This document shows, piece after piece, positions 6,431 through 58,210 of a DNA stretch of 64,000 nucleotides. The stretch covers positions 1-64,000 of the forward strand of contig CAYYKJ010000007.1 of assembly GCA_964441265.1 (NCBI GenBank), written 5' to 3'. Position 1 is the stretch's first letter; each line of letters starts with the position of its first letter. Below the pieces are notes generated by a model, which saw only the letters and a program-made list of their open reading frames with translations, was not told the DNA's origin and ran no database searches. Both the position numbers and the translations under genes were made by a program. This DNA is from an uncultured archaeon. GTDB taxonomy: Archaea; Aenigmatarchaeota; Aenigmatarchaeia; QMZP01; QMZT01.

Positions 6431-7455
6431 GCTATAGATATAATTCGTGCGTATAGATGAGAGCTTGACACCGGCTCCCGGCGACGGGAGCGTTAAGTTT
6501 GAGGTAGGAGAATGCAAAACCCTTGTTGAAGCTCATATGAGGAGCTTTATGCGTAACGCCAATCCCAATTCCGGCTGATCCTGCCGGAGGCCACTGCTAT
6601 TCGGATTTGGCTAAGCCATGCTCGTTCTGGGTTAAACCAGAGCAAAGAGCTCAGTAACACGTAGTCAACCTGCCCTTGGGTCCGGACGAATCTCGGGAAA
6701 CTGAGGATAATGCCGGATAGGCAAAAAGATCTGGAAACGTGTGACAACTTGGATTTCAATCACGAGTTGTCCTTCGCCGGTTTGACTTTTTGTCCAACCA
6801 AGGATGGGACTGCGGCTGATTAGGTTGTTGCCAGGCTAAAATGGACTGACGTTCATTTCGAATGTCTTTCTTTAGATTCCTGGCAAGCCGATAATCAGTA
6901 CGGGCCTTGAGAGAGGAAGCCCGGAGATGGATTCTGAGACAAGAATCCAGGCCCTACGGGGTGCAGCAGGCGCGAAACTTTCCCAATGTGCGCAAGCATG
7001 AGGAAGAGATCCGGAGTGTTCTCCTTTTGGGGGAACTTTTGTCAAGTCCAAAAAAGATTGACGGCTGATTCTGTGAATCCATGCCGTCGCTCTGTGGTTA
7101 GCTTGGCGAATAAGTGGTGGGTAATACGGGTGCCAGCCGCCGCGGTAATACCCGAGCCACAAGTGGTGGCCACGTTTATTGGGCTTAAAGTGTTCGTAGC
7201 CGGTTCTGCCAGTCCTTGGTGAAATCATCTGGTAAACCAGGTGGCTTGCTGAGGATACTACAGGACTTGGGACCGGGAGAGGTCAAGGGTACTGACGGGG
7301 TAGGGGTAAAAAGCGATTGTTGACCCGGATTTTTCTGATCAGGTCAACCTTCCTTACATTCCTATAATCCTGTCAGGACCACCAGTGGCGAAGGCGCTTG
7401 ACTAGAACGGATCCGACGGTGAGGGACGAAAGCCAGGGGATCGAATGGGATTAGA

Positions 7456-7799
7456 TATGGGTTCAGGAAAAGGTATTTATTTCCAGTAATTAACTATAAA
7501 TAGATTAGAATGCCCAGTATTTCAAGTGATATTTGTAGGATGACTCTGAAGGACATATCAGTAAAAGGCAAGCGGAAATTGATTTCACAACAACTTCGAA
7601 GGAGATTTGCCAATATATACTTGAATATTTTAAAATAATTGGACTAAAAACAAGTGGCAGAGTCAGAAGCCGAAGAAAGAACAGGGAGTACGAAATAAGG
7701 ATATACGGCAAGGAAAATTTAATACTTTTTTCAAAACATGTCAAGATAAAACATCCTGATAAAATTGCCAGAATGAAGAAATTCCTGTCCCACTAAAAA
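7456..7799 (+). mobile_element. 16S intron 1 with decayed LAGLIDADG endonuclease remnant
   Basis: Inserted after GGATTAGATA and AT-rich. Two short out-of-frame reading frames resemble homing-endonuclease fragments (…EICQYILEYFKIIGLKTSGRV…EYEIRIYGKENLILF…). Confidence 0.45.
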
Positions 7800-8061
7800 C
7801 CCCAGTAGTCCTGGCTGTAAACGATACCCACTAGACATTAGGGATCTTACGTGGGTTCCTGGTGTCGCAGGAAAACCGCTAAGTGGGTCGCCTGGGAAGT
7901 ACGGTCGCAAGGCTGAAACTTAAGGGAATTGGCGGGGGAGCACACAAGGGGTGGAGGCTGCGGTTCAATTCGATTCAACGCGGGGAACCTTACCAGAGGC
8001 GAGGCAGGCACTCACTGTCACTAATGGTAAGGTTTATTAGCACCGTAATCAACAATTAAAC

Positions 8062-8640
8062 ATGAGGAACATAGCAGACCTCTCAAAAATAACACCGAAA
8101 GAAAGGGGATACCTGATTGGATTTTACATCGGAGACGGTAACATATTTGAACAAAATTCTTCAGGGATTTACAGGCTCAGATATTTTCTCGGCCTTAAAG
8201 AAAAACCAATACAGGAATCCCTTGTTGAAATATTGTCCAAGTTATTTGCGAATATAAGGACCTACGATGGACAGGGAAATACAATTGTAATTGAAATTCA
8301 TTCAAAACAGTTCATAACTTGGGTGAAAAACAACTGTACAAAGGATGGGATTAAAAACAAAAGCTCATCTAAAAGATTCAAAATTGGTGTTATAGAGGGT
8401 CTGATAGACAGCGATGGATATGTTCAAAGAAACTATGTTGAGATAACAACTGTCAATGAGAAACTGCGAAAAAATATTATTGAAATTTTGAGCGGTTTCA
8501 AAACAAAACCAAATGTTAGAAGTTATTCTTCTCCAATTTCCGGAAGAACCGGATGGAGAGTTGGTTTTTCTTTAAAAAACGGTGCTTTTAAACCTACCAA
8601 GTGGGTTCTTGCCCCTCAAACAGCAGAAAATGCTGCGTAA
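8062..8640 (+). CDS. LAGLIDADG homing endonuclease (double-motif) in 16S intron 2
   Basis: LIGFYIGDGNI and IEGLIDSDGYV motifs. Lies inside a 16S insertion (~8013-8679). Confidence 0.8.
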   Translation: MRNIADLSKITPKERGYLIGFYIGDGNIFEQNSSGIYRLRYFLGLKEKPIQESLVEILSKLFANIRTYDGQGNTIVIEIHSKQFITWVKNNCTKDGIKNKSSSKRFKIGVIEGLIDSDGYVQRNYVEITTVNEKLRKNIIEILSGFKTKPNVRSYSSPISGRTGWRVGFSLKNGAFKPTKWVLAPQTAENAA

Positions 8641-8795
8641 GGTTTACCATGAAGACATACCGTGCGCGCATCTGCAATGAAGGTCAGGTTGAAGGCCTTA
8701 CCAGACAAGCTGAGAAGTAGTGCATGGCCGTCGTCATTCCACGAGGGCAAAACCGGCATCTGATATTCTTCTTTTCGTCCGAAAAGCAGATAAGG

Positions 8796-9368
8796 ATGCC
8801 TCCCGAATTAAGAATCATGAAAACTGTTGGTTTTCAGAAAAAACAAATCAAATGCTCCGAAAATGATGCCTATATTTTAGGATTGTTTAGGGCAGACGGG
8901 TATACTTGGACAGGAACATTCGGAATAACTAATAGAAATCAGAAAATATTAGAAAAAGCTGCAAAAATCCTTTCAAAATTCGGCCAAAACAAATGGAGAA
9001 ATGATGAGAAAGGATTTTTCAGGGTTTGCATAACAAGTAGGCCCAGAAAAAGGGAATTTCTGAAGGCAATGGAAAATACAGAAAAATCATTAATTGATAA
9101 CAAATTAATGATTGCATCATATTTCGCAGGTAAATATGATGGAGATGGTTCTTATTGGAAAAAAACAAGACTGAGGTTCAAAATAACATACGGGAAACCT
9201 GAAAATATAGAATTTGATCAAAAGCTATTGCTCTCCGTTGGTATTTCAAGTAAAATAAGAAAATATAAAAATGCAAATGCATTTGACCTTGAAATATCAA
9301 GTGGTGATGCTTTAGCATTTTTTGACCTGATAAAAAATATTCGATTAAATGTCCTCTTGGAACGATAA
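8796..9368 (+). CDS. LAGLIDADG homing endonuclease (double-motif) in 16S intron 3
   Basis: ILGLFRADGYT and YFAGKYDGDGSY motifs. The ORF track starts at 8724 inside the exon; internal Met 8796 is more likely. Confidence 0.7.
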   Translation: MPPELRIMKTVGFQKKQIKCSENDAYILGLFRADGYTWTGTFGITNRNQKILEKAAKILSKFGQNKWRNDEKGFFRVCITSRPRKREFLKAMENTEKSLIDNKLMIASYFAGKYDGDGSYWKKTRLRFKITYGKPENIEFDQKLLLSVGISSKIRKYKNANAFDLEISSGDALAFFDLIKNIRLNVLLER

Positions 9369-9927
9369 AGTTCGTGCCGTGAGAGCTTGATGCTTTCATG
9401 TCATAAAGTGCCATGTTCCGGTAAAGGTGTCGTCTTAAGTGACGTAACGAACAAGACCCATACCTCATGTTGCTATCCAACTCTGTCGGAGCACTCATGA
9501 GGGACCGCTGGCGATAAGCCAGAGGAAGGTGTGGTCGACGGCAGGTCCGTATGCCCTGAATCCTCTGGGTAACACGCGGCCTACAATGGATGGGACAATG
9601 GGATGCCACTCCGAAAGGAGGAGCTAATCCTTCAAACCCATTCCTGGTCCGGATCGAGGGCTGCAACCCGCCCTCGTGAAGCCGAAATCCCTAGTAGTCG
9701 CTGGTTAGCAAGTGCGAAAGTCGCCGCGAAAGCGGTAGCGCTTTCGGGTCTAAAATCTAGCGTCGAATAAGTTCCTGCTCCTTGCACACACTGCCCGTCA
9801 AGCCATCCGAGTGGAGTTTTGGCGAGGTCTTCCCTTCGGGGAGGATCAAACCACAACTTTGCAAGGAGGGCTAACTCCAATAGTAATATTTTGGAGAACA
9901 ATTATTATTGGGGGCCTAAAGTCGTAA

Positions 9928-10067
9928 AATGGCTAGATGGGCAATTTGAGAAGTCGCAAAACGATTTCTATGACATCTATAACGTGTGTATAAACGGATG
10001 AAGCCTAGCTTGTAGCGCTTCATCAGACTCATGTATAGTTAGGAATATCATCTAGCTGTTCGATAAA
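9928..10067 (+). mobile_element. small ORF-less intron near 16S 3' end
   Basis: A ~140 nt insertion separates AAGTCGTAA from CAAGGTAGCCGTA. Confidence 0.4.
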
Positions 10068-10196
10068 CAAGGTAGCCGTACGGGAACGTGCGGCTGGATC
10101 ACCTCCTTATATATTTCGAATGACAACTTATTTCGAAAATTTAGGTTGTCTCTCGAAACATTCAACAGGGTGCATACTTCTCCTACCGCAAAAATC

Positions 10197-10402
10197 GGGC
10201 CGGTAGATCAACGGTGCGTTTCAAAAGGGAGCTGACATTTCACCCCACAACGAAACGTTTCGGGGTGTTGTGGGTCAATCGCTCCCGCTGCGTTAAAGAT
10301 CGCTGCCCTTGCAAGGCAGAGGCTTCGGGTTCAAAGCGACCCTTTTGCTCAAAGAAGAAACAGCTGATGCTTGCGGGGGTCGGGAAAATCCCGACCGGTC
10401 CA
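10197..10402 (+). tRNA. tRNA-Ala(TGC) in the 16S-23S spacer with two non-canonical introns (D-loop and T-loop)
   Basis: Acceptor GGGCCGG/CCGGTCC with G3:U70 and A73. D-stem GATC/GATC. Anticodon arm CTGCC-CTTGCAA-GGCAG. T-stem TCGGG/CCCGA with the T-loop TTCAAA...T split by an insertion. Confidence 0.6.
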
Positions 10403-12005
10403 TGAGAAATTGCATGGCGGGTCCGCCGGAGAGCAAATCCGGGCCGGGCTGGCCGCATTCGCGCACGTAAATATTTAAATATATAGTAACATATAATACA
10501 TGCTCTCTGCAGCCGTGCAGGGCTGGGAGGGCCAAATCGAATGCATTGGTTGACTATCAGACTGTTCAGAGTCGGTCACGCCCCGGTGACAGCGGGCTTG
10601 GTTGGCAGGCAGATAGTCGAGGCGACTCGGTATCTATTTTCTGGACAGTTTCGGGAATACCATGCTTGTAATGTTGAAATGAGGCTCGTTACTGCAAATA
10701 ACGGGCTGATTTGAGAAGGATGATGACCACTTTGACGGTCACGTGAGCACCGGCATAGCAGGGCGCGCCTCGGCGGGCCGTGTTACCGGCTGCGATGAAA
10801 GAGTGAACACCATTAGAGTCCTTTGATGATTCCATAGGCGAGTTGTCCCGACCACAAGGGTCTGTTACGCTGCATGGTGGCTGACTTGGCTCGGAAAACG
10901 AAGAGGGACGTGGCAAGCTGCGAAAAGCCCGGGGTAGGTGCAAGCAGCCTTTGAACCCGGGATTTCCTAATGGGACTTCCCAGCATTTGCTATTCGCAAT
11001 AGCGAAGGTTGACGGCCTGGATTGAAACATCTTATTAGGGCCAGGAAGAGAAAGCAATCGCGATTCCCTGAGTAAAGGCGATCGAAAGGGGAACAGGACA
11101 AACCGAATCCCCTATTGAGAGATAGGGGACATGTGGGGTTTGGACCTGCGCTCGGCCCAACTTCCCAACCCGAAGTGACCTGGAACGGTTCACGACAAAG
11201 GGTGAGAGTCCCGTAGGGATAAGGAAGAGGGTTGATATCAGGTATCCGGAGTACCGTTGGTTGGAAATCCAGCGGGAATGCGGGAGACACTAACTCCCAA
11301 TCCTAAACATAATCCGAGTCCGATAGCGTACTAGTACGGTGACGGAAAGTCGAAAAGCATCCTTAACAGGAGCTGAAAAGAGCCTAAAGCCATGTAGTTA
11401 TAGGTTGGTAAGGCACATGCTTGCATGTGTTTTGCCGTCCGTTTTGAAACACGCGGCAAGGAGTTTATCTCCGTGGCGAGGATAACGTGATGGTATCCAT
11501 AGCGAAAGCGAGAACCCCGCAGCTTGCGAGGGGGTCAGGTGTGAAAGCGCCTACAGTCACGGGGATAATACCTGAAGCCGGTCGATCTAGCCCTGGGCAG
11601 GGTGAAGTCTAGCGAAAGCTGGATGGAGGCCCGTTACCGTTGCTGAGATTCAAATCGCTCAGGTGACCTGGGGCTAGGAGTGAAAATGGGGTGACGGCCA
11701 GAATTCATCTGTTTAGGCCGTCGTTCCTTCAACGCTAATCGAGATCGGCAATAGCTGGTTCCTCTCTAAATGTATCTGAGTACAGCCTGGCCGGAGGTAG
11801 AATATGGGGTAAAGATACTGATTGCGTAACCAAGGATCGAAAGGTCCAGTTGTGCTGTCAAACTCAGAATCCATGTTCGCCGTAGAAGGCTGGAGTGGGG
11901 GTGCCGGGGTAAGCTCGGTATCCGAAAGGGAAAGAACCCAGACTGAAGTTAAGGTCCCTAAATGTTGTCTAATCGAAGAAAAGCGTCATCAACCATAAAC
12001 AATAG

Positions 12006-12037
<32 letters not shown>

Positions 12038-12404
12038 CGAGCGAAGGCTTGGATTTATCGGATTAAGCCTTCATTCGAAAGAGAGAGTGTGTAATAACTC
12101 ACCTATCTAGGTTGATGGCCTTGAAAATGGACGGGACTAAGGCAACTACCGATACTTTGGATCACGAAAGTGATAGCGTAGGGAGGTGTCCTGCTGGGGC
12201 AGAAGTTCTTCCGTAAGGGGGAATGGACCTTGCAGGAATAAGAATCTTGCTGATAGTAGCAGCACTAGTGGAGTGAGAATCTCCACCACCTAAAGGGCTA
12301 GGGTTCCTCAGCAACGATTAAAAGCTTGACGCTGAATGGTCAGCGTCGGTTTGTCGAATCAGCTGAGGGTTAGTCGGTCCTAAGGCGTCTCCTAACCGGA
12401 GGAT

Positions 12405-12436
<32 letters not shown>

Positions 12437-13090
12437 CATGGAAGTACGTGCGGCGACGCAAGCCCGGTTCCAGACTTTTCGGGATAGGCTGACCATTTCG
12501 ATGGTTAACCCGTTAAGCCTGCGGAGTACCGTAATGGTGAGAAGCAGGTGAAGCGGGGAATAGCCCGTGTATTCGGGTTTGGCTGAATCCTGGAAACCGT
12601 GAAAATGGAAACGGGAAGGATCTTTCATGTCCGTACCGAGAACCGTTACTGGTGACCCTTGCTGAAAAGGTTAAGGTGTATTAGGTTAAATTACCCTAGG
12701 GAATTCGGCAAATTAGCCCCGAATCTTTGGTATGAGGGGTGCCTAGTCCCTTGGCTCAGCCAAGAAGACTAGGTCGCAGTGACAAGGGGGGTCCGACTGT
12801 TTAACAAATGGGAAGCGCAGATTTAATGATTATCTGTTCTTTTCGTGCTTCAGTCGGAAATCGAACCCTCGGACAGGCCAAGTTAGTATGAAAGGACGTT
12901 TTTACAAATTTCAAACTTTCCGTTCTTCCCAGTTAAAAAACATAGGGGGCTGCTAGTCGGAAACGATTTGTATAGCTCCTGAGGCCTGCCCAGTGCGAGT
13001 GTGTCAAGCTGGACTTCAATCCAGTGAAGCCCTCGTAAACGGCGGCGGTAACTCTGACCGTTGACTTAGGCGGTCACAAAATTTGGCTAT

Positions 13091-13738
13091 ATGCGGGAAC
13101 TCCATAGTATTCCGGGTCCTGAGAAAGGAAAAATCCCGGAAACGATGACGGATAATCCGCAGGAAACTGTTTGCTTCATGGGGGTGGTTACCATGAAGAA
13201 AGTCGAACAAGGGTTTAGTAAACTCTTGAGAAAAAAGCGTTACCTGAGATTTTATATCTTGGGTTTCGTTGATGCCGAAGGTTGTTTTAGTGTGTCATTG
13301 AAGCAACAGAAAACGACGAGATTCGGCTGGGTATTGGATCCGTTATTCCAGGTAACTCAACACAAAAATAACAGGATTGTACTCGAAAAGATAAAAGGAG
13401 AATTGGGTTGCGGAAGGATAATTGATAAACCCGGTCAAAAAGATACACTGATATATTTGGTTGATAACCGAAGACAACTGAACGAGAAAATAATTCCCTT
13501 CTTTGAAAAGTACAGGCTTGTTTCGAAGGACAGTGATTTCCAGAAATTCAAGAGAATCGTCAGAGGACTTGAAAAAAAGGAACACGGCGAATTGGAATCT
13601 TTCTTGAAACTGATCAAAAAAGCCTTCGAAATGAATCTGGGAGGGAAACAAAGAAGATACAAACTCGAAGAAGTCTTGAAAAAATTGGGAAGCAGACAGA
13701 ATCCCCAGAGGCCATACGCCAGACACTCAAGTGAGTGA
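13091..13738 (+). CDS. LAGLIDADG homing endonuclease (single-motif) in 23S intron
   Basis: ILGFVDAEGCF motif; the ORF lies inside a 23S insertion. The true start may be an internal Met. Confidence 0.75.
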   Translation: MRELHSIPGPEKGKIPETMTDNPQETVCFMGVVTMKKVEQGFSKLLRKKRYLRFYILGFVDAEGCFSVSLKQQKTTRFGWVLDPLFQVTQHKNNRIVLEKIKGELGCGRIIDKPGQKDTLIYLVDNRRQLNEKIIPFFEKYRLVSKDSDFQKFKRIVRGLEKKEHGELESFLKLIKKAFEMNLGGKQRRYKLEEVLKKLGSRQNPQRPYARHSSE

Positions 13739-14398
13739 AGATATGGTCCGACTCTTACAGTAATGTAAGTAAGTTGCTTAAGGTAGCGTAGTCCCTTGCC
13801 GATTAATTGTCGGCCTGCATCAAGGGCTTAACGAGATCCCCGCTGTCCTGGGGTAATGCCTAGTGAAATTAATTGTCCAGTGCATATTCTGGAGACCTTC
13901 AGTGGGACGAGAAGACCCCATTGAGCTTTACTGCAGTCTACTGCTGTGATATGATAATGGTTGCACAGTGTAGGTGGGAGCGTCGAACCCGCGTCTTTGG
14001 GTGCGGGGAATGCGACAATGTAACACCACCCTACCGTTCTCATATTGCTTATCCTTCGGGAGACACCAGTTGATGGGCAGTTTGGCTGGGGCGGTACGCC
14101 TCTGATAAGGGATCAGAGGTGCCCTAAGTTCGGCTCATTCCGGTCAGAAATCGGAATTAGAGTGCAAGAGCAAAAGCCGGACTGATAGGATTCTGCAAAG
14201 TGAGGAATCCTAACGCGAAAGCGTGGTCTAGCGATCCGCTGTGTCTTTATTAGATGAAAGCCAGCTCTGACAGAAAAGTTACCATGGGGATAATCAACCA
14301 GAGAGTTGATAGGTTTTGAAAGCCATGTCAGGGGATATCTTTTCCTTTCTGTATTTTGAGACGAAAGTAAGATAAATCCCATTAATGAAATAATAAGC

Positions 14399-14953
14399 AT
14401 GGATTTGATTGAAAAGGGATTCGTTTTCGGTGCCAGCGAAGACGGAACTGTTTACCATAGACCTTCAAGAAATCAATATAACATAGAAATCGAGCAGAAA
14501 GTTCAAAAATGGCTTGAGATTGTGAAGAAAGCAGTGCAGAAAACATATAACAAAAACGTGAGGATAGCAAGGACTTCTAAAGGTTATTTCAGGTTGCTTG
14601 TTTATTCCAAAAAACTGCATAATGATCTCAAATCTTTCAGAAAGGATTATTCGAAAATCCTAACCGAAAACAAAGACTTCCAGACCGGCTTCCTTCGCGG
14701 ATTTTTTGATGCGGAGGGAACGGTCCACAACAAAAGATATTCGATTAGGGTGGCATCGAAGAATAAGCAAACAATCCTTGTAATCAAGAAAATGCTTAAT
14801 AAATTCAATATTAAAACCGGTAAAATTCATGCCGATAAGACGGCATATGTTTTGCCTCTGTACGGAAAAGATAATCTAGAAAGATTCGATTCCGTTGTCA
14901 GTTTTAGACATGAAGAAAAGAAAGAAAGACTTTCAAAACTTCTCTCTGGTTGA
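14399..14953 (+). CDS. LAGLIDADG homing endonuclease (single-motif) in 23S intron
   Basis: LRGFFDAEGTV motif; inserted after GGGGATAA in 23S domain V. Confidence 0.75.
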   Translation: MDLIEKGFVFGASEDGTVYHRPSRNQYNIEIEQKVQKWLEIVKKAVQKTYNKNVRIARTSKGYFRLLVYSKKLHNDLKSFRKDYSKILTENKDFQTGFLRGFFDAEGTVHNKRYSIRVASKNKQTILVIKKMLNKFNIKTGKIHADKTAYVLPLYGKDNLERFDSVVSFRHEEKKERLSKLLSG

Positions 14954-15525
14954 TCCCGAAAATGGAGTCGTGACGCGTGAGAGTCCATAGCGTCATAACT
15001 TGGTTAACTTTCTAAAAGGTCTTTGATTTCCAAGTTAGACATGGATATATCGACCGCGTTCGTTGCTTCTCCGCCGTCGGCTCGGCTCTTCCTGGACGTG
15101 CAGCAGCGTCCAAGGGTGGGGGTGTTCACCCATCAAAGAGCCACGTTAGCTGGGTTAAATACGGTGCGAGCCAGTATGGTCTATATCTACTGAAGGTGTC
15201 GGGAACCTGAGGGGAAGAAGCACTCAGTACGAAAGGAACAGTGCATCGTGGCCTCTGGTGTACCAGTTGTGTATACATCGCTGGGTAGCTATGCCATTGT
15301 GGATAAGGGCTGAAAGCATCTAAGCTCGAAGCCGCTCCCGAAAATAGGTTCCCACTCCTCAAACTGATTGGCAACAACCGGTGCGAGGGAAAGGATCCGG
15401 TATACGACCGGGTTGATAGAATCGGGGTGTAAGTACCGAGGCAACGAGGTATTCAGCCTACGATCACTAATACTCCAAATGGCCCTGGTTAAAGGGACAA
15501 CTCGCCGCTATTATTTTTTTATCAT

Positions 15526-16458: not shown

Positions 16459-17133
16459 TTGGAGTTTAGAGTAATTATGCACGTGATATTTTCCCCCATG
16501 TGGTTCATGGGCATAGATTCGATATTCGAAATCATGTCAGCGATAATCGCCATACTGGTGGGGTTCTATTCGTTCAAGATATACAGAGCCACCCGCAGGA
16601 AGGAATTCAAGTTCCTTTTCCTCGCCTTTGCGCTGCTGTTCTTCGCCTTCATAGCGAGATCGGTGACCGACCTGGCGGCGTATAATCTTTTCCTGGAGAG
16701 GATTCCGACCATATCCAGGATAGTCAGCGTCCAGTACGTGTATTTCGTCGGAATATACTTCTACCAGATGCTCACTCTTTTCGCCTATCTTACCCTGGCG
16801 GTGCTTTCTCTGAAGGTGAGGAGCAGGAGGACGATCTCGCTCCTTATCCTGTTTGTGGTCTTCTCGTCATTCACCACGCTGATAAACTATTCAATGTTCC
16901 ACCTGGTCTCGGCGGTGCTCTTGTCCTACGTGGTGCTGCATTTCTATGAGAACTGCAGGGAGAGGTCATGCACGAATTCACATCTTGTGTTCGTCTCCTT
17001 CCTGCTGATACTCTGCTCCCAGGTGGTTTTCATAATGATATTCCATTCGTTGTTCTACGTCTTCGGGCACTTCCTGCAGTTCGCGGGATATCTCGTGCTT
17101 CTGATAAATCTTTTGCTGGTGCATAGGTCATGA
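16459..17133 (+). CDS. polytopic membrane protein, unknown function
   Basis: About 6-7 hydrophobic helices. Its stop overlaps the start of the next gene. Confidence 0.5.
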   Translation: MEFRVIMHVIFSPMWFMGIDSIFEIMSAIIAILVGFYSFKIYRATRRKEFKFLFLAFALLFFAFIARSVTDLAAYNLFLERIPTISRIVSVQYVYFVGIYFYQMLTLFAYLTLAVLSLKVRSRRTISLLILFVVFSSFTTLINYSMFHLVSAVLLSYVVLHFYENCRERSCTNSHLVFVSFLLILCSQVVFIMIFHSLFYVFGHFLQFAGYLVLLINLLLVHRS

Positions 17134-17405
17134 AAAAGAGGAGGGACAAGGGGGAGATAGTTTACGACATGCTGTCTGCCTTGTGGGAGAGCAGGAGAGG
17201 CCTCAAGCCGACCCACCTCATATACAAGTCCAACATATCCTACGTCCGTCTCAAGAGGCACGTTAAGGAACTACTGGAAAAGGGAATGGTCAAAGAGGGG
17301 ACCGGAGAGGGCGGACACAAGGTCTATAAGATCACAGATAAGGGAATCAAATTCATCAGGGAATACGACAGGATGAAGAGGTTCATGGATTCGTTCGGAC
17401 TTTGA
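17130..17405 (+). CDS. small winged-helix DNA-binding protein
   Basis: 91 aa and basic, with a wHTH-like pattern. Translationally coupled to the upstream membrane protein (ATGA overlap). Confidence 0.5.
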   Translation: MKKRRDKGEIVYDMLSALWESRRGLKPTHLIYKSNISYVRLKRHVKELLEKGMVKEGTGEGGHKVYKITDKGIKFIREYDRMKRFMDSFGL

Positions 17406-17744
17406 TCTATTAATGCTTTTTGATGAATTGAGTTTGCGGGAAGAACTAAATGCGCGGCTGGAATTTATTGCATGTGGGATTCTCGCGCGTTTTTAAGCGA
17501 TTGCGATACATTTCCGATGTTAAAAAATCATGGCCAATCTGTATAGTCAAGTTATTTGGAACGTTTAAGCTGATGTACACCTCATTCGGGCCAAGGCCAT
17601 GTTCTTCCCCTCCTGGCGACTTGAAGAAATATTCACCCATTTTCGTCATTGTATGTTATTGGTTGTTTGGTTTTTTATTCGCTTCATATTAACTCGCCTT
17701 TTGGATACAGATACTTTTATAAATCTTTTTATAGAAGGGATAAT

Positions 17745-18115
17745 CAAGTTGAGCTGGGTAGATAGCTCCCCGGCCGTTCAGAGGGCTGTTCAGCCCCGAA
17801 CAGAGGCCGGGAGGAAGCTCCATTCACCCATACAAGGTAATGCCGGAAGGCATGGGCCGGGAGGCCCCCACAGGACACAGAAAAGACCGGCGCGGCAGAG
17901 CCATGATGCTTACGGTAGAACGGTTAAACCTGTTCTGATCCGGGCTGAGCGGGGAGGCCGATGCCGGGTGAAATAATCCGTGGTGCCGGGTGCAAGCCGG
18001 CTAAAAGCGGGCCGGACAGCAGGTCGTTCAACCGTCTAGACCGACTGGCCAGAGGCGCTCAGAAAAATGCTATCACCCCGTCCAGGGTTAGATGTTTGGT
18101 CCCTGCGGGATGACA
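17745..18115. ncRNA. candidate structured RNA (GC-rich island in AT-rich intergenic; RNase P RNA- or SRP RNA-like motifs but not assignable)
   Basis: Nested stems (GAGCT…AGCTC, CCGGCC…GGCCGG, CTGTTC…GAACAG) and an AUGCC-GGAA-GGCAU tetraloop hairpin. Motifs GGAAGCUCCAU, ACAGAAAAGACCGGC and GGGUGAAAU are present. No plausible ORF. Confidence 0.35.
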
Positions 18116-18176
18116 AAAAATGGGCTATTCCCAGCACAACTATTTCCTTTTTAAGATTTGATTTCGAGTTTTTATC

Positions 18177-57928: not shown

Positions 57929-58210
57929 TTACCACTTCTTGAACTTCTTCTTTATCCTGTCCTCGGGCCGGGATATCATGACCTCGCCCCTGACCGATAC
58001 CCTCCTCCCGCCGGGAAGGATGAAAACGAATGTGCATTCCCCCTTCGCCAGCGTGGCTTCCTTCCCGTTGTCTTTCTCTATTTTCAGGGTGTTCCTGGTC
58101 TCGTCGATTACCCTGCCCCTTATCCCCACGGATTTTGGGTTTCTGGCCTCCTTGACCTCTATTTTCAGGCCGATCAGCTCGTGGCGGACCAGATTTTCAG
58201 GGGTGATCAT
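57929..58210 (-). CDS. rnp1: RNase P protein subunit Rpp29/Pop4
   Basis: LIGLKIEVKEARNPKSVGIRGRVIDETRNTLKIE…. Confidence 0.75.
   Translation of the reverse strand: MITPENLVRHELIGLKIEVKEARNPKSVGIRGRVIDETRNTLKIEKDNGKEATLAKGECTFVFILPGGRRVSVRGEVMISRPEDRIKKKFKKW

Follow-up and report, generated by a model that had tools for sequence, protein, structure and literature searches.

A probable RNase P RNA gene of an Aenigmarchaeota archaeon that scores below the Rfam gathering threshold

The 64,000-nt stretch of archaeal DNA analyzed here (hereafter, the window) contains a GC-rich island that, judging from its sequence and from its relatives, is very probably the gene for the catalytic RNA subunit of the ribonucleoprotein RNase P of an Aenigmarchaeota (DPANN) archaeon. 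The RNA is a new, somewhat divergent member of a well-known family, and the gene is of an ordinary kind. The Rfam model of archaeal RNase P RNA (RF00373, RNaseP_arch) matches positions 17757-18131 of the + strand over its entire length (model positions 1-288 of 288) with a score of 74.0 bits (E = 1.9e−20 on a 901-nt region; E = 1.4e−18 on the 64-kb window with 4227 Rfam families). It is the top match within the RNase P clan for the region and the sole RNase P match in the window. Because 74 bits falls below the gathering score of RF00373 (84 bits), default Rfam annotation misses the gene: a scan of the window at gathering thresholds returned only two rRNAs, and the RNase P RNA was found only by an E-value threshold. 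An nhmmer profile built from relatives only has its sole match in the window at 17750-18140 (E = 3.1e−45). The first-pass annotation had suspected a structured noncoding RNA, perhaps an RNase P RNA, and had named Infernal and Rfam as the check. That suspicion is borne out by the end-to-end match, though it lies under the gathering score, and by orthologues that exceed this score. A literature search retrieved no description of an Aenigmarchaeota RNase P RNA; the two papers that matched, an inventory of the protein subunits of archaeal RNase P and a study on archaeal proviruses, do not describe it.

The G+C content of positions 17745-18115, the interval originally delimited, is 60.4%, compared with 50.2% in the whole window, 37.5% in the 5′ spacer (17406-17744), and 24.3% in the 3′ spacer (18140-18176). 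The description of a GC-rich island within an AT-rich intergenic region therefore holds, and the gap between the stop codon of the HTH_45 gene (17405) and the start codon of the PQQ-propeller gene (18177) measures 771 bp. The end of the island had been placed too early, as the element runs to 18139. An end at 18115 keeps just the first two bases of the P4 3′ strand and drops the entire P1 3′ strand. Thermodynamic folding by itself is unpersuasive (the MFE z-scores, −2.3 for the + strand and −2.6 for the − strand, are weak alone and alike on both strands), which is why the argument is built on homology and covariation. The AT-rich 310 bp upstream of the promoter (17406-17715) are unconserved across the orthologous loci and appear to be spacer DNA. 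The small ORFs called in this upstream stretch vary by contig: those of the window encode 67 and 80 aa, and that of the orthologous locus L121 encodes 57 aa. The features of the locus are as follows, in window coordinates.

17130-17405: HTH_45 winged-helix gene, 5′ neighbor of the RNA gene
17599-17976 and 17961-18113: mechanical ORFs of 125 aa and 50 aa over the island
17716-17723 (+): putative TATA box TTTATAAA, centered ~27-30 nt upstream of the first P1 base
17749-18139 (+): probable RNase P RNA gene, ~390 nt, its ends being the two P1 strands; located by RF00373 and the relatives-only profile
17749-17758 (+): P1 5′ strand UUGAGCUGGG, pairing with CCCAGCACAA at 18130-18139 (9 pairs and one A-A mismatch)
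17761-17766 (+): P2 5′ strand GAUAGC, pairing with GCUAUC at 18069-18074 (6 bp)
17770-17810 (+): P3, an expanded three-segment hairpin of 41 nt
17811-17824 (+): CR-I and P4 5′ strand GAGGAAGCUCCAUU, with bulged U17819
17825-17829 with 17988-17992 (+): P5, enclosing the specificity domain (17825-17992); compensatory change
17836-17839 with 17984-17987 (+): P7
17840-17853 (+): P8 (AUGCC-GGAA-GGCAU), compensatory changes in 3 pairs
17854-17867 (+): P9 (GGGCC-GGGA-GGCCC), compensatory changes in 2 pairs
17868-17875 with 17977-17983 (+): P10/11, 1 compensatory pair in P11
17877-17886 (+): CR-II ACAGAAAAGA
17887-17967 (+): P12, 81 nt, 3 compensatory pairs
17897-17956 (+): P12 K-turn module and distal P12, with GAGC-NNN-GA on each strand (17898-17906 and 17947-17955)
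17907-17946 (+): distal P12 extension
17966-17974 (+): CR-III GGGUGAAAU
17992-17996 (+): J5/15 GCAAG
17996-17998 with 18054-18056 (+): P15 (GCC/GGC), around a 55-nt P16/P17-like expansion
18057-18074 (+): J15/2 GCUCAGAAAAAU and, after it, the P2 3′ strand GCUAUC; aligned to the RF00373 consensus GCuuAGucGAAUGCcgcc
18075-18111 (+): P19 hairpin CCCG-UC-CAGGG...CCCUG-CGGG, between the P2 and P4 3′ strands
18114-18126 (+): CR-V and P4 3′ strand ACAAAAAAUGGGCU, pairing with 17816-17824
18143-18152 (+): T-runs, TTT and then TTTTT, 4-13 nt past P1
18177-19430 (+): PQQ-like beta-propeller gene, with its ATG 37 nt past the RNA 3′ end
57929-58210 (−): Rpp29 gene, 93 aa (PF01868, RNase_P-MRP_p29; 90.5 bits, E = 6.5e−26)

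All of the conserved regions, CR-I to CR-V, are found in canonical order (17811-17824, 17877-17886, 17966-17974, J5/15 GCAAG at 17992-17996, and 18114-18126). A base-by-base check against the sequence confirmed every helix. The RNase P-like motifs that had been noticed earlier are where they were said to be (GGAGGAAGCUCCAU at 17810-17823, with the other two at the positions of CR-II and CR-III), and GGAAGCUCCAU constitutes CR-I and the 5′ strand of P4. Their order had been judged not to fit the canonical P4 arrangement, a difficulty that arose because the interval stopped at 18115, before most of the P4 3′ strand, and that disappears once this strand is included. The P4 pseudoknot pairs AGC(U)CCAUU with AAUGGGCU in 8 pairs around the canonical bulged U (U17819). 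Every P4 cell in the alignment of orthologues is paired, and an A-U pair is replaced by G-C in L125 and L133 (columns 73/374).

Compensatory changes are also seen in P1 (U-A to C-G, alignment columns 6/386) and at the base of P15 (G-C to A-U), while the basal helix of P3 shows one compensatory and two one-sided changes. P2 is pairable in all four orthologues yet invariant and thus lacks covariation support. The P2 5′ segment AUAGCUC (17762-17768) can also make 7 pairs with the P4 3′ segment GGGCUAU (18122-18128), and the bases involved are invariant in four of four sequences; this pairing may represent an alternative conformer, or it may be a coincidence, as P2 and CR-I both contain AGCUCC. 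The 55-nt interior of P15-17 folds differently in the window RNA and in L121 and is not alignable to the consensus; the fold within P15-17 is uncertain. Inspection of the P15-17 interior revealed no convincing complement to J5/7 (AUACAA) that could serve as the P6 partner. The hairpin between the 3′ strands of P2 and P4 carries compensatory changes in 5 of its 10 pairs among the orthologues. We considered this hairpin as a candidate new element and rejected the idea: it is P19, which has been described for archaeal clades (PMC12974513) and is present in Asgard RNase P RNAs. Because Asgard RNAs with a hairpin at this place still score 160-180 bits, the low score is not explained by P19, which is not a new element either.

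The specificity domain is complete, with all helices of the P7-P8-P9-P10/11 cruciform and of P12 formed. The AUGCC-GGAA-GGCAU hairpin of the first-pass annotation is indeed present and corresponds to P8; a second tetraloop hairpin, GGGCC-GGGA-GGCCC, follows it as P9. The GAGC-NNN-GA pattern on both P12 strands fits two K-turn consensus units, and its eight G/A positions are invariant in four of four orthologues; a competing 5-bp Watson-Crick helix is also possible in the module. In the RNase P RNAs of Pyrococcus and Methanococcus, the euryarchaeal P12 carries a double K-turn where L7Ae binds (Lai et al. 2017, PMC5499556), and by analogy L7Ae would bind the K-turn module in P12 of the window RNA. 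A single motif search of the window for L7Ae found none. The possibility that the symmetric P12 module is unique to the clade was rejected, as the same pattern occurs in an RNase P RNA of Desulfurococcales.

Orthologues were located via a conserved gene pair, in which a gene for a 218-aa membrane protein is followed by HTH_45. They are found in L121 (5597-5956, 360 nt; GCA_016932215.1, an NCBI Aenigmarchaeota metagenome-assembled genome), L125 (3322-3601, 280 nt), and L133 (4769-5049, 281 nt). Against RF00373 the three score 102.9, 94.7, and 92.5 bits, respectively, and all exceed the gathering score; the window RNA has the lowest score of the four and is the longest. Its pairwise identity to each orthologue is ~70%. 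In comparison, RNase P RNAs of Asgard archaea and Woesearchaeota score 157-180 bits on the same model, and a 3′-truncated RNase P RNA of an unclassified archaeon (L053) scores 115 bits. Given that the four RNAs reach only 74-103 bits, we conclude that the clade is poorly served by RF00373. The organism was assigned through protein matches: the best matches of the PQQ protein are Candidatus Aenigmarchaeota proteins (top match, 75% identity), and the 218-aa membrane protein also matches a protein named Aenigmarchaeota. Exact look-ups of the PQQ and HTH_45 proteins of the window matched no contig.

The alignment of the four sequences supports the predicted structure. RNAalifold recovers P1, P3, P4, P5, P7, P8, P9, P11, P12, P15, and the 3′ hairpin, with double changes in 20 of 79 pairs. 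In a separate count we used a structure set by hand, with P2 added as a pseudoknot (74 pairs, four sequences). The two bases can pair in 98.6% of the cells, compared with 37-45% when partners are slid by 1-3 columns, and changes on both sides occur in 19 of the 74 pairs, compared with 1-5 in the slid-partner controls. None of 500 shuffles reached the observed values; sequences that share ancestry may outscore shuffles even where no structure exists, and the slid-partner control therefore carries more weight. The covariation support comes from three independent lineages only.

Lengths vary substantially among the four RNAs. P3 measures 41 nt in the window RNA and 17 nt in L125 and L133; the P15-17 interior measures 55 nt in the window RNA, 42 nt in L121, and is a 4-5-nt loop in L125 and L133; and distal P12 is likewise expanded in the window RNA relative to L125 and L133. 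The insertions of the window RNA are clean helix extensions at sites where RNase P RNAs normally vary. An origin of these expansions as copies of rRNA insertions or of some other repeat was rejected, as blastn-short of the window gave chance 10- to 18-mers only.

Gene order is shared as well. The order LSU rRNA ... 218-aa membrane protein - HTH_45 - RNase P RNA is seen in the window, L121, and L133; the L125 sequence, which begins downstream of any rRNA gene, shows membrane protein - HTH_45 - RNase P RNA. The membrane protein belongs to no Pfam family, and its ORF shares 4 nt with that of HTH_45. There is no synteny at the locus of the PQQ paralogue P0002 (L139), and no RNase P RNA was found beside HTH_45 at the loci of distant membrane-protein homologues (L132, L135-138) or on short contigs with P0122 (L128-131). 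A scan of genome contigs with GAGGAAGCTCC...ACAGAAAMGA yielded, among the matches listed, no Aenigmarchaeota; those listed were RNase P RNAs of Asgard archaea, Thaumarchaeota, Micrarchaeota, and others, together with random bacterial matches. The CR-I variant GAGGAAGCUCC (the GCUCC form) is widespread in archaea among the same matches, and therefore it is no peculiarity of the window RNA. A three-block scan of metagenomes found no close relative and returned one chance, coding-like match (L123) and one canonical RNase P RNA (L124). The latter, at 1385-1689 of JGI metagenome contig Ga0172382_10004160, is a 305-nt archaeal RNA (169.8 bits), which has the CR-I form GAGGAAGCUCCAU as in the window RNA but no P19.

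The block (A)C(U/C)TTTATAAA(T/C)C, which reads ACTTTTATAAATC in the window, is invariant in four of four loci, and the rest of the upstream DNA is unconserved. The element TTTATAAA is thus a putative promoter, with the transcription start placed by the usual archaeal distance between TATA box and start. Every orthologous locus has a T5 run past P1, likely an archaeal termination signal. Rpp29, which the first-pass annotation had reported in the window, is encoded there as listed above. Together, the conserved TATA box, the downstream oligo-T run, and the Rpp29 gene are consistent with a functional gene. The downstream neighbor differs among the loci: in L125 and L133, the gene downstream of the orthologous RNA is Sec61-beta and not a PQQ gene. 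Since Sec61-beta takes that place, the RNA is not tied to the PQQ gene.

How far do other readings account for these data? The island might be a decaying, nonfunctional copy of an RNase P RNA gene, its low score reflecting relaxed selection, while another RNase P RNA locus or a protein-only HARP matures tRNA 5′ ends. The score is below the gathering threshold and the lowest of the clade (74 versus 92-103 bits), and the insertions in P3, P12, and P15-17 are large relative to the sister RNAs. Decay would not be expected, however, to leave every conserved region and the bulged-U P4 intact, to keep the TATA box invariant, or to compensate the substitutions relative to the sister lineages in 19 pairs; the inserted segments extend helices cleanly at positions that normally vary, and Rpp29 is retained. 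The analysis covered 64 kb of the genome, and within it there is no second RNase P match; another RNase P RNA copy or a protein-only RNase P may lie elsewhere. We therefore consider a decayed copy improbable.

More improbable still is that the island encodes a different structured RNA, either a 5′ leader or riboswitch of the PQQ gene or an unrelated small RNA, that resembles RNase P RNA by chance. The RNA does end 37 nt before the PQQ ATG on the same strand, and its MFE z-score is modest, with little difference between the strands, but chance likeness is hard to reconcile with an E value of 1e−18 against the full RNase P model with the conserved regions all in order. A leader of the PQQ gene is also at odds with the Sec61-beta gene downstream in L125 and L133 and with the RNA's own conserved TATA box and putative terminator, and, RF00373 aside, Rfam gives nothing but a noise-level match for the region (13 bits, E = 6). 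Least credible of all, with a negligible probability in our estimation, is a protein-coding region, be it the 125-aa ORF at 17599-17976 or antisense ORFs. Some mechanical ORFs do overlap the island (125, 50, and 44 aa), and in other contigs gene callers put small ORFs on the orthologous regions or close to them; the earlier remark that no protein-like ORF is present is hence right in the sense that there is no coding gene, but not in the literal sense. Indels of 1, 8, 9, and 13 nt distinguish the orthologues within the region and so exclude a coding reading. Moreover, the variation takes the form of paired compensatory changes and does not follow codon position, and the 125-aa ORF begins in unconserved AT-rich DNA.

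An RNase P RNA gene thus being the preferred reading, we propose that it would be transcribed from its own TATA promoter (17716-17723), with transcription ending at the oligo-T run near 18148. The ~390-nt RNA would fold into a catalytic domain, comprising P1, P2, P3, the P4 pseudoknot, P5, P15 with a P16/17-like extension, and P19 stacked on P2, and into a specificity domain, comprising the P7-P8-P9-P10/11 cruciform, the CR-II/CR-III module, and a long P12. Its partners would be the window-encoded Rpp29 and presumably Rpp21, Pop5, Rpp30, and L7Ae; L7Ae would bind at the P12 K-turn module. The resulting ribonucleoprotein would remove the 5′ leaders of pre-tRNAs by Mg2+-dependent hydrolysis at the P4 core.

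The rRNA genes upstream of the locus are unusually long. The SSU rRNA gene (6568-9917) spans 3350 nt versus a 1478-nt model, and the LSU rRNA gene (10853-15490) spans 4638 nt versus a 2987-nt model. Four LAGLIDADG homing-endonuclease ORFs lie within these genes (8062-8640, 8724-9368, 13091-13738, and 14399-14953). A match to the group I intron model RF00028 at 13495-13770 (+), within the LSU rRNA, is sub-threshold (33.2 bits; gathering score, 50; E = 1e−4) and overlaps the end of a LAGLIDADG_1 ORF. Compared with the archaeal model, the SSU rRNA has insertions of 39-49 nt at about 6737-6783, 6852-6890, 7053-7100, and 7311-7359, each of which folds as a hairpin that lengthens an existing helix; these insertions could be expansion segments or mini-introns. 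ARAGORN found no tRNA genes in the 64 kb, including the 935-nt 16S-23S spacer (9918-10852), and 5S rRNA had no Rfam match in the window. The long RNase P RNAs occur in genomes with an insertion-rich LSU rRNA (390 nt in the window; 360 nt in L121, with LSU insertions of 152, 242, and 721 nt), and in L133 the 3′ half of the LSU rRNA is almost without insertions and the RNase P RNA measures 281 nt. The size of the RNase P RNA may track the rRNA insertion load of the same genomes, an anecdotal relationship at n = 3. If it does, it would suggest that structured RNAs have expanded lineage-wide in a reduced DPANN genome.

The finding matters mainly for annotation and involves no new principle. At the default Rfam threshold, this genome would seem to be without an RNase P RNA. 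Nanoarchaeum equitans is known to lack RNase P altogether, and for that reason an apparent absence of the RNA in DPANN archaea invites over-interpretation. A clade-specific model that would recover such genes reliably could be seeded with the four sequences, their structure as supported by covariation, and the conserved neighborhood. The range of 280-390 nt within one clade with ~70% core identity is also a data point on the growth and shrinkage of P3, P12, and P15-17.

Among known RNase P RNAs, the window RNA is closest in predicted architecture to type A (RF00373, e.g., that of Pyrococcus furiosus): it is type A-like with a full specificity domain and P19 and is neither type T nor type M. 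The order of elements from P1 to P1′ is the same, and the P4 bulged U, the GNRA-type loops on P8 and P9, the P12 K-turn signatures, and the Rpp29 gene are shared. Unlike the RNase P RNAs of Asgard archaea and Woesearchaeota (157-180 bits) and that of L124, the window RNA scores 74 bits, and no P6 was found in it. Its J11/12 is shorter (ACAGAAAAGAC versus ACAGAAACGAnAC), its P3 measures 41 nt and its P12 81 nt, and its P15-17 interior is not alignable to the consensus. Asgard RNase P RNAs with P19 (Promethearchaeota, Thor-, Odin-, and Hermodarchaeota) resemble it in having a hairpin that separates the P2 3′ strand from the ACAnAA of CR-V and in the CR-I variant GAGGAAGCUCC(AU). Of 120 loci from archaea and bacteria compared by nhmmer, they also match it best, yet at ≤28 bits; in contrast to the window RNA, they are well matched by the Rfam model, and their P12 module is of the usual AUGAnnAUGAUGC type. 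Bacterial type B and eukaryal RNAs with P19 or eP19 (e.g., Geobacillus stearothermophilus) likewise have a J2/4 helix stacking on P2, but they are of another domain-level family, and the rest of the window RNA is archaeal.

The short P15 hairpin of L125 and L133, without P16/P17, recalls type M of Methanococcales. Type M, however, lacks P8 and P16/P17/P6, whereas the window RNA has a covarying P8 and a long P15-17 region. The first-pass annotation had suggested a comparison with the minimal type T RNAs of Thermoproteaceae (Pyrobaculum, RF02357), which are ~200 nt long and have lost most of the specificity domain. This comparison proved inapplicable because the whole specificity domain (P7-P12, CR-II, and CR-III) is present in the ~390-nt window RNA; P8, P9, P10/11, P12, CR-II, and CR-III are kept by all of its relatives, too. 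With the published double K-turn module, in which one helix serves KT2 as its noncanonical and KT3 as its canonical helix (Lai et al. 2017, PMC5499556), P12 of the window RNA shares two adjacent K-turn consensus units at the same position. Unlike in that module, the units of the window RNA bulge on opposite strands and are predicted to share a 2-bp canonical helix.

One could take the Aenigmarchaeota RNAs as a sub-type of their own among archaeal RNase P RNAs, poorly modelled so far and defined by a shortened J11/12, P19, an opposite-polarity pair of K-turns sharing a 2-bp helix, and a variable periphery of the catalytic domain, a proposal that we regard as doubtful. In such a sub-type, the periphery would vary among close relatives, the extremes being a bare P15 hairpin in an RNA of 280 nt and an extension of 55 nt in one of 390 nt. 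Each individual element of the window RNA, that is, P19, the P12 K-turn signatures, and the expansions of P3, P12, and P15-17, is already known in archaea.
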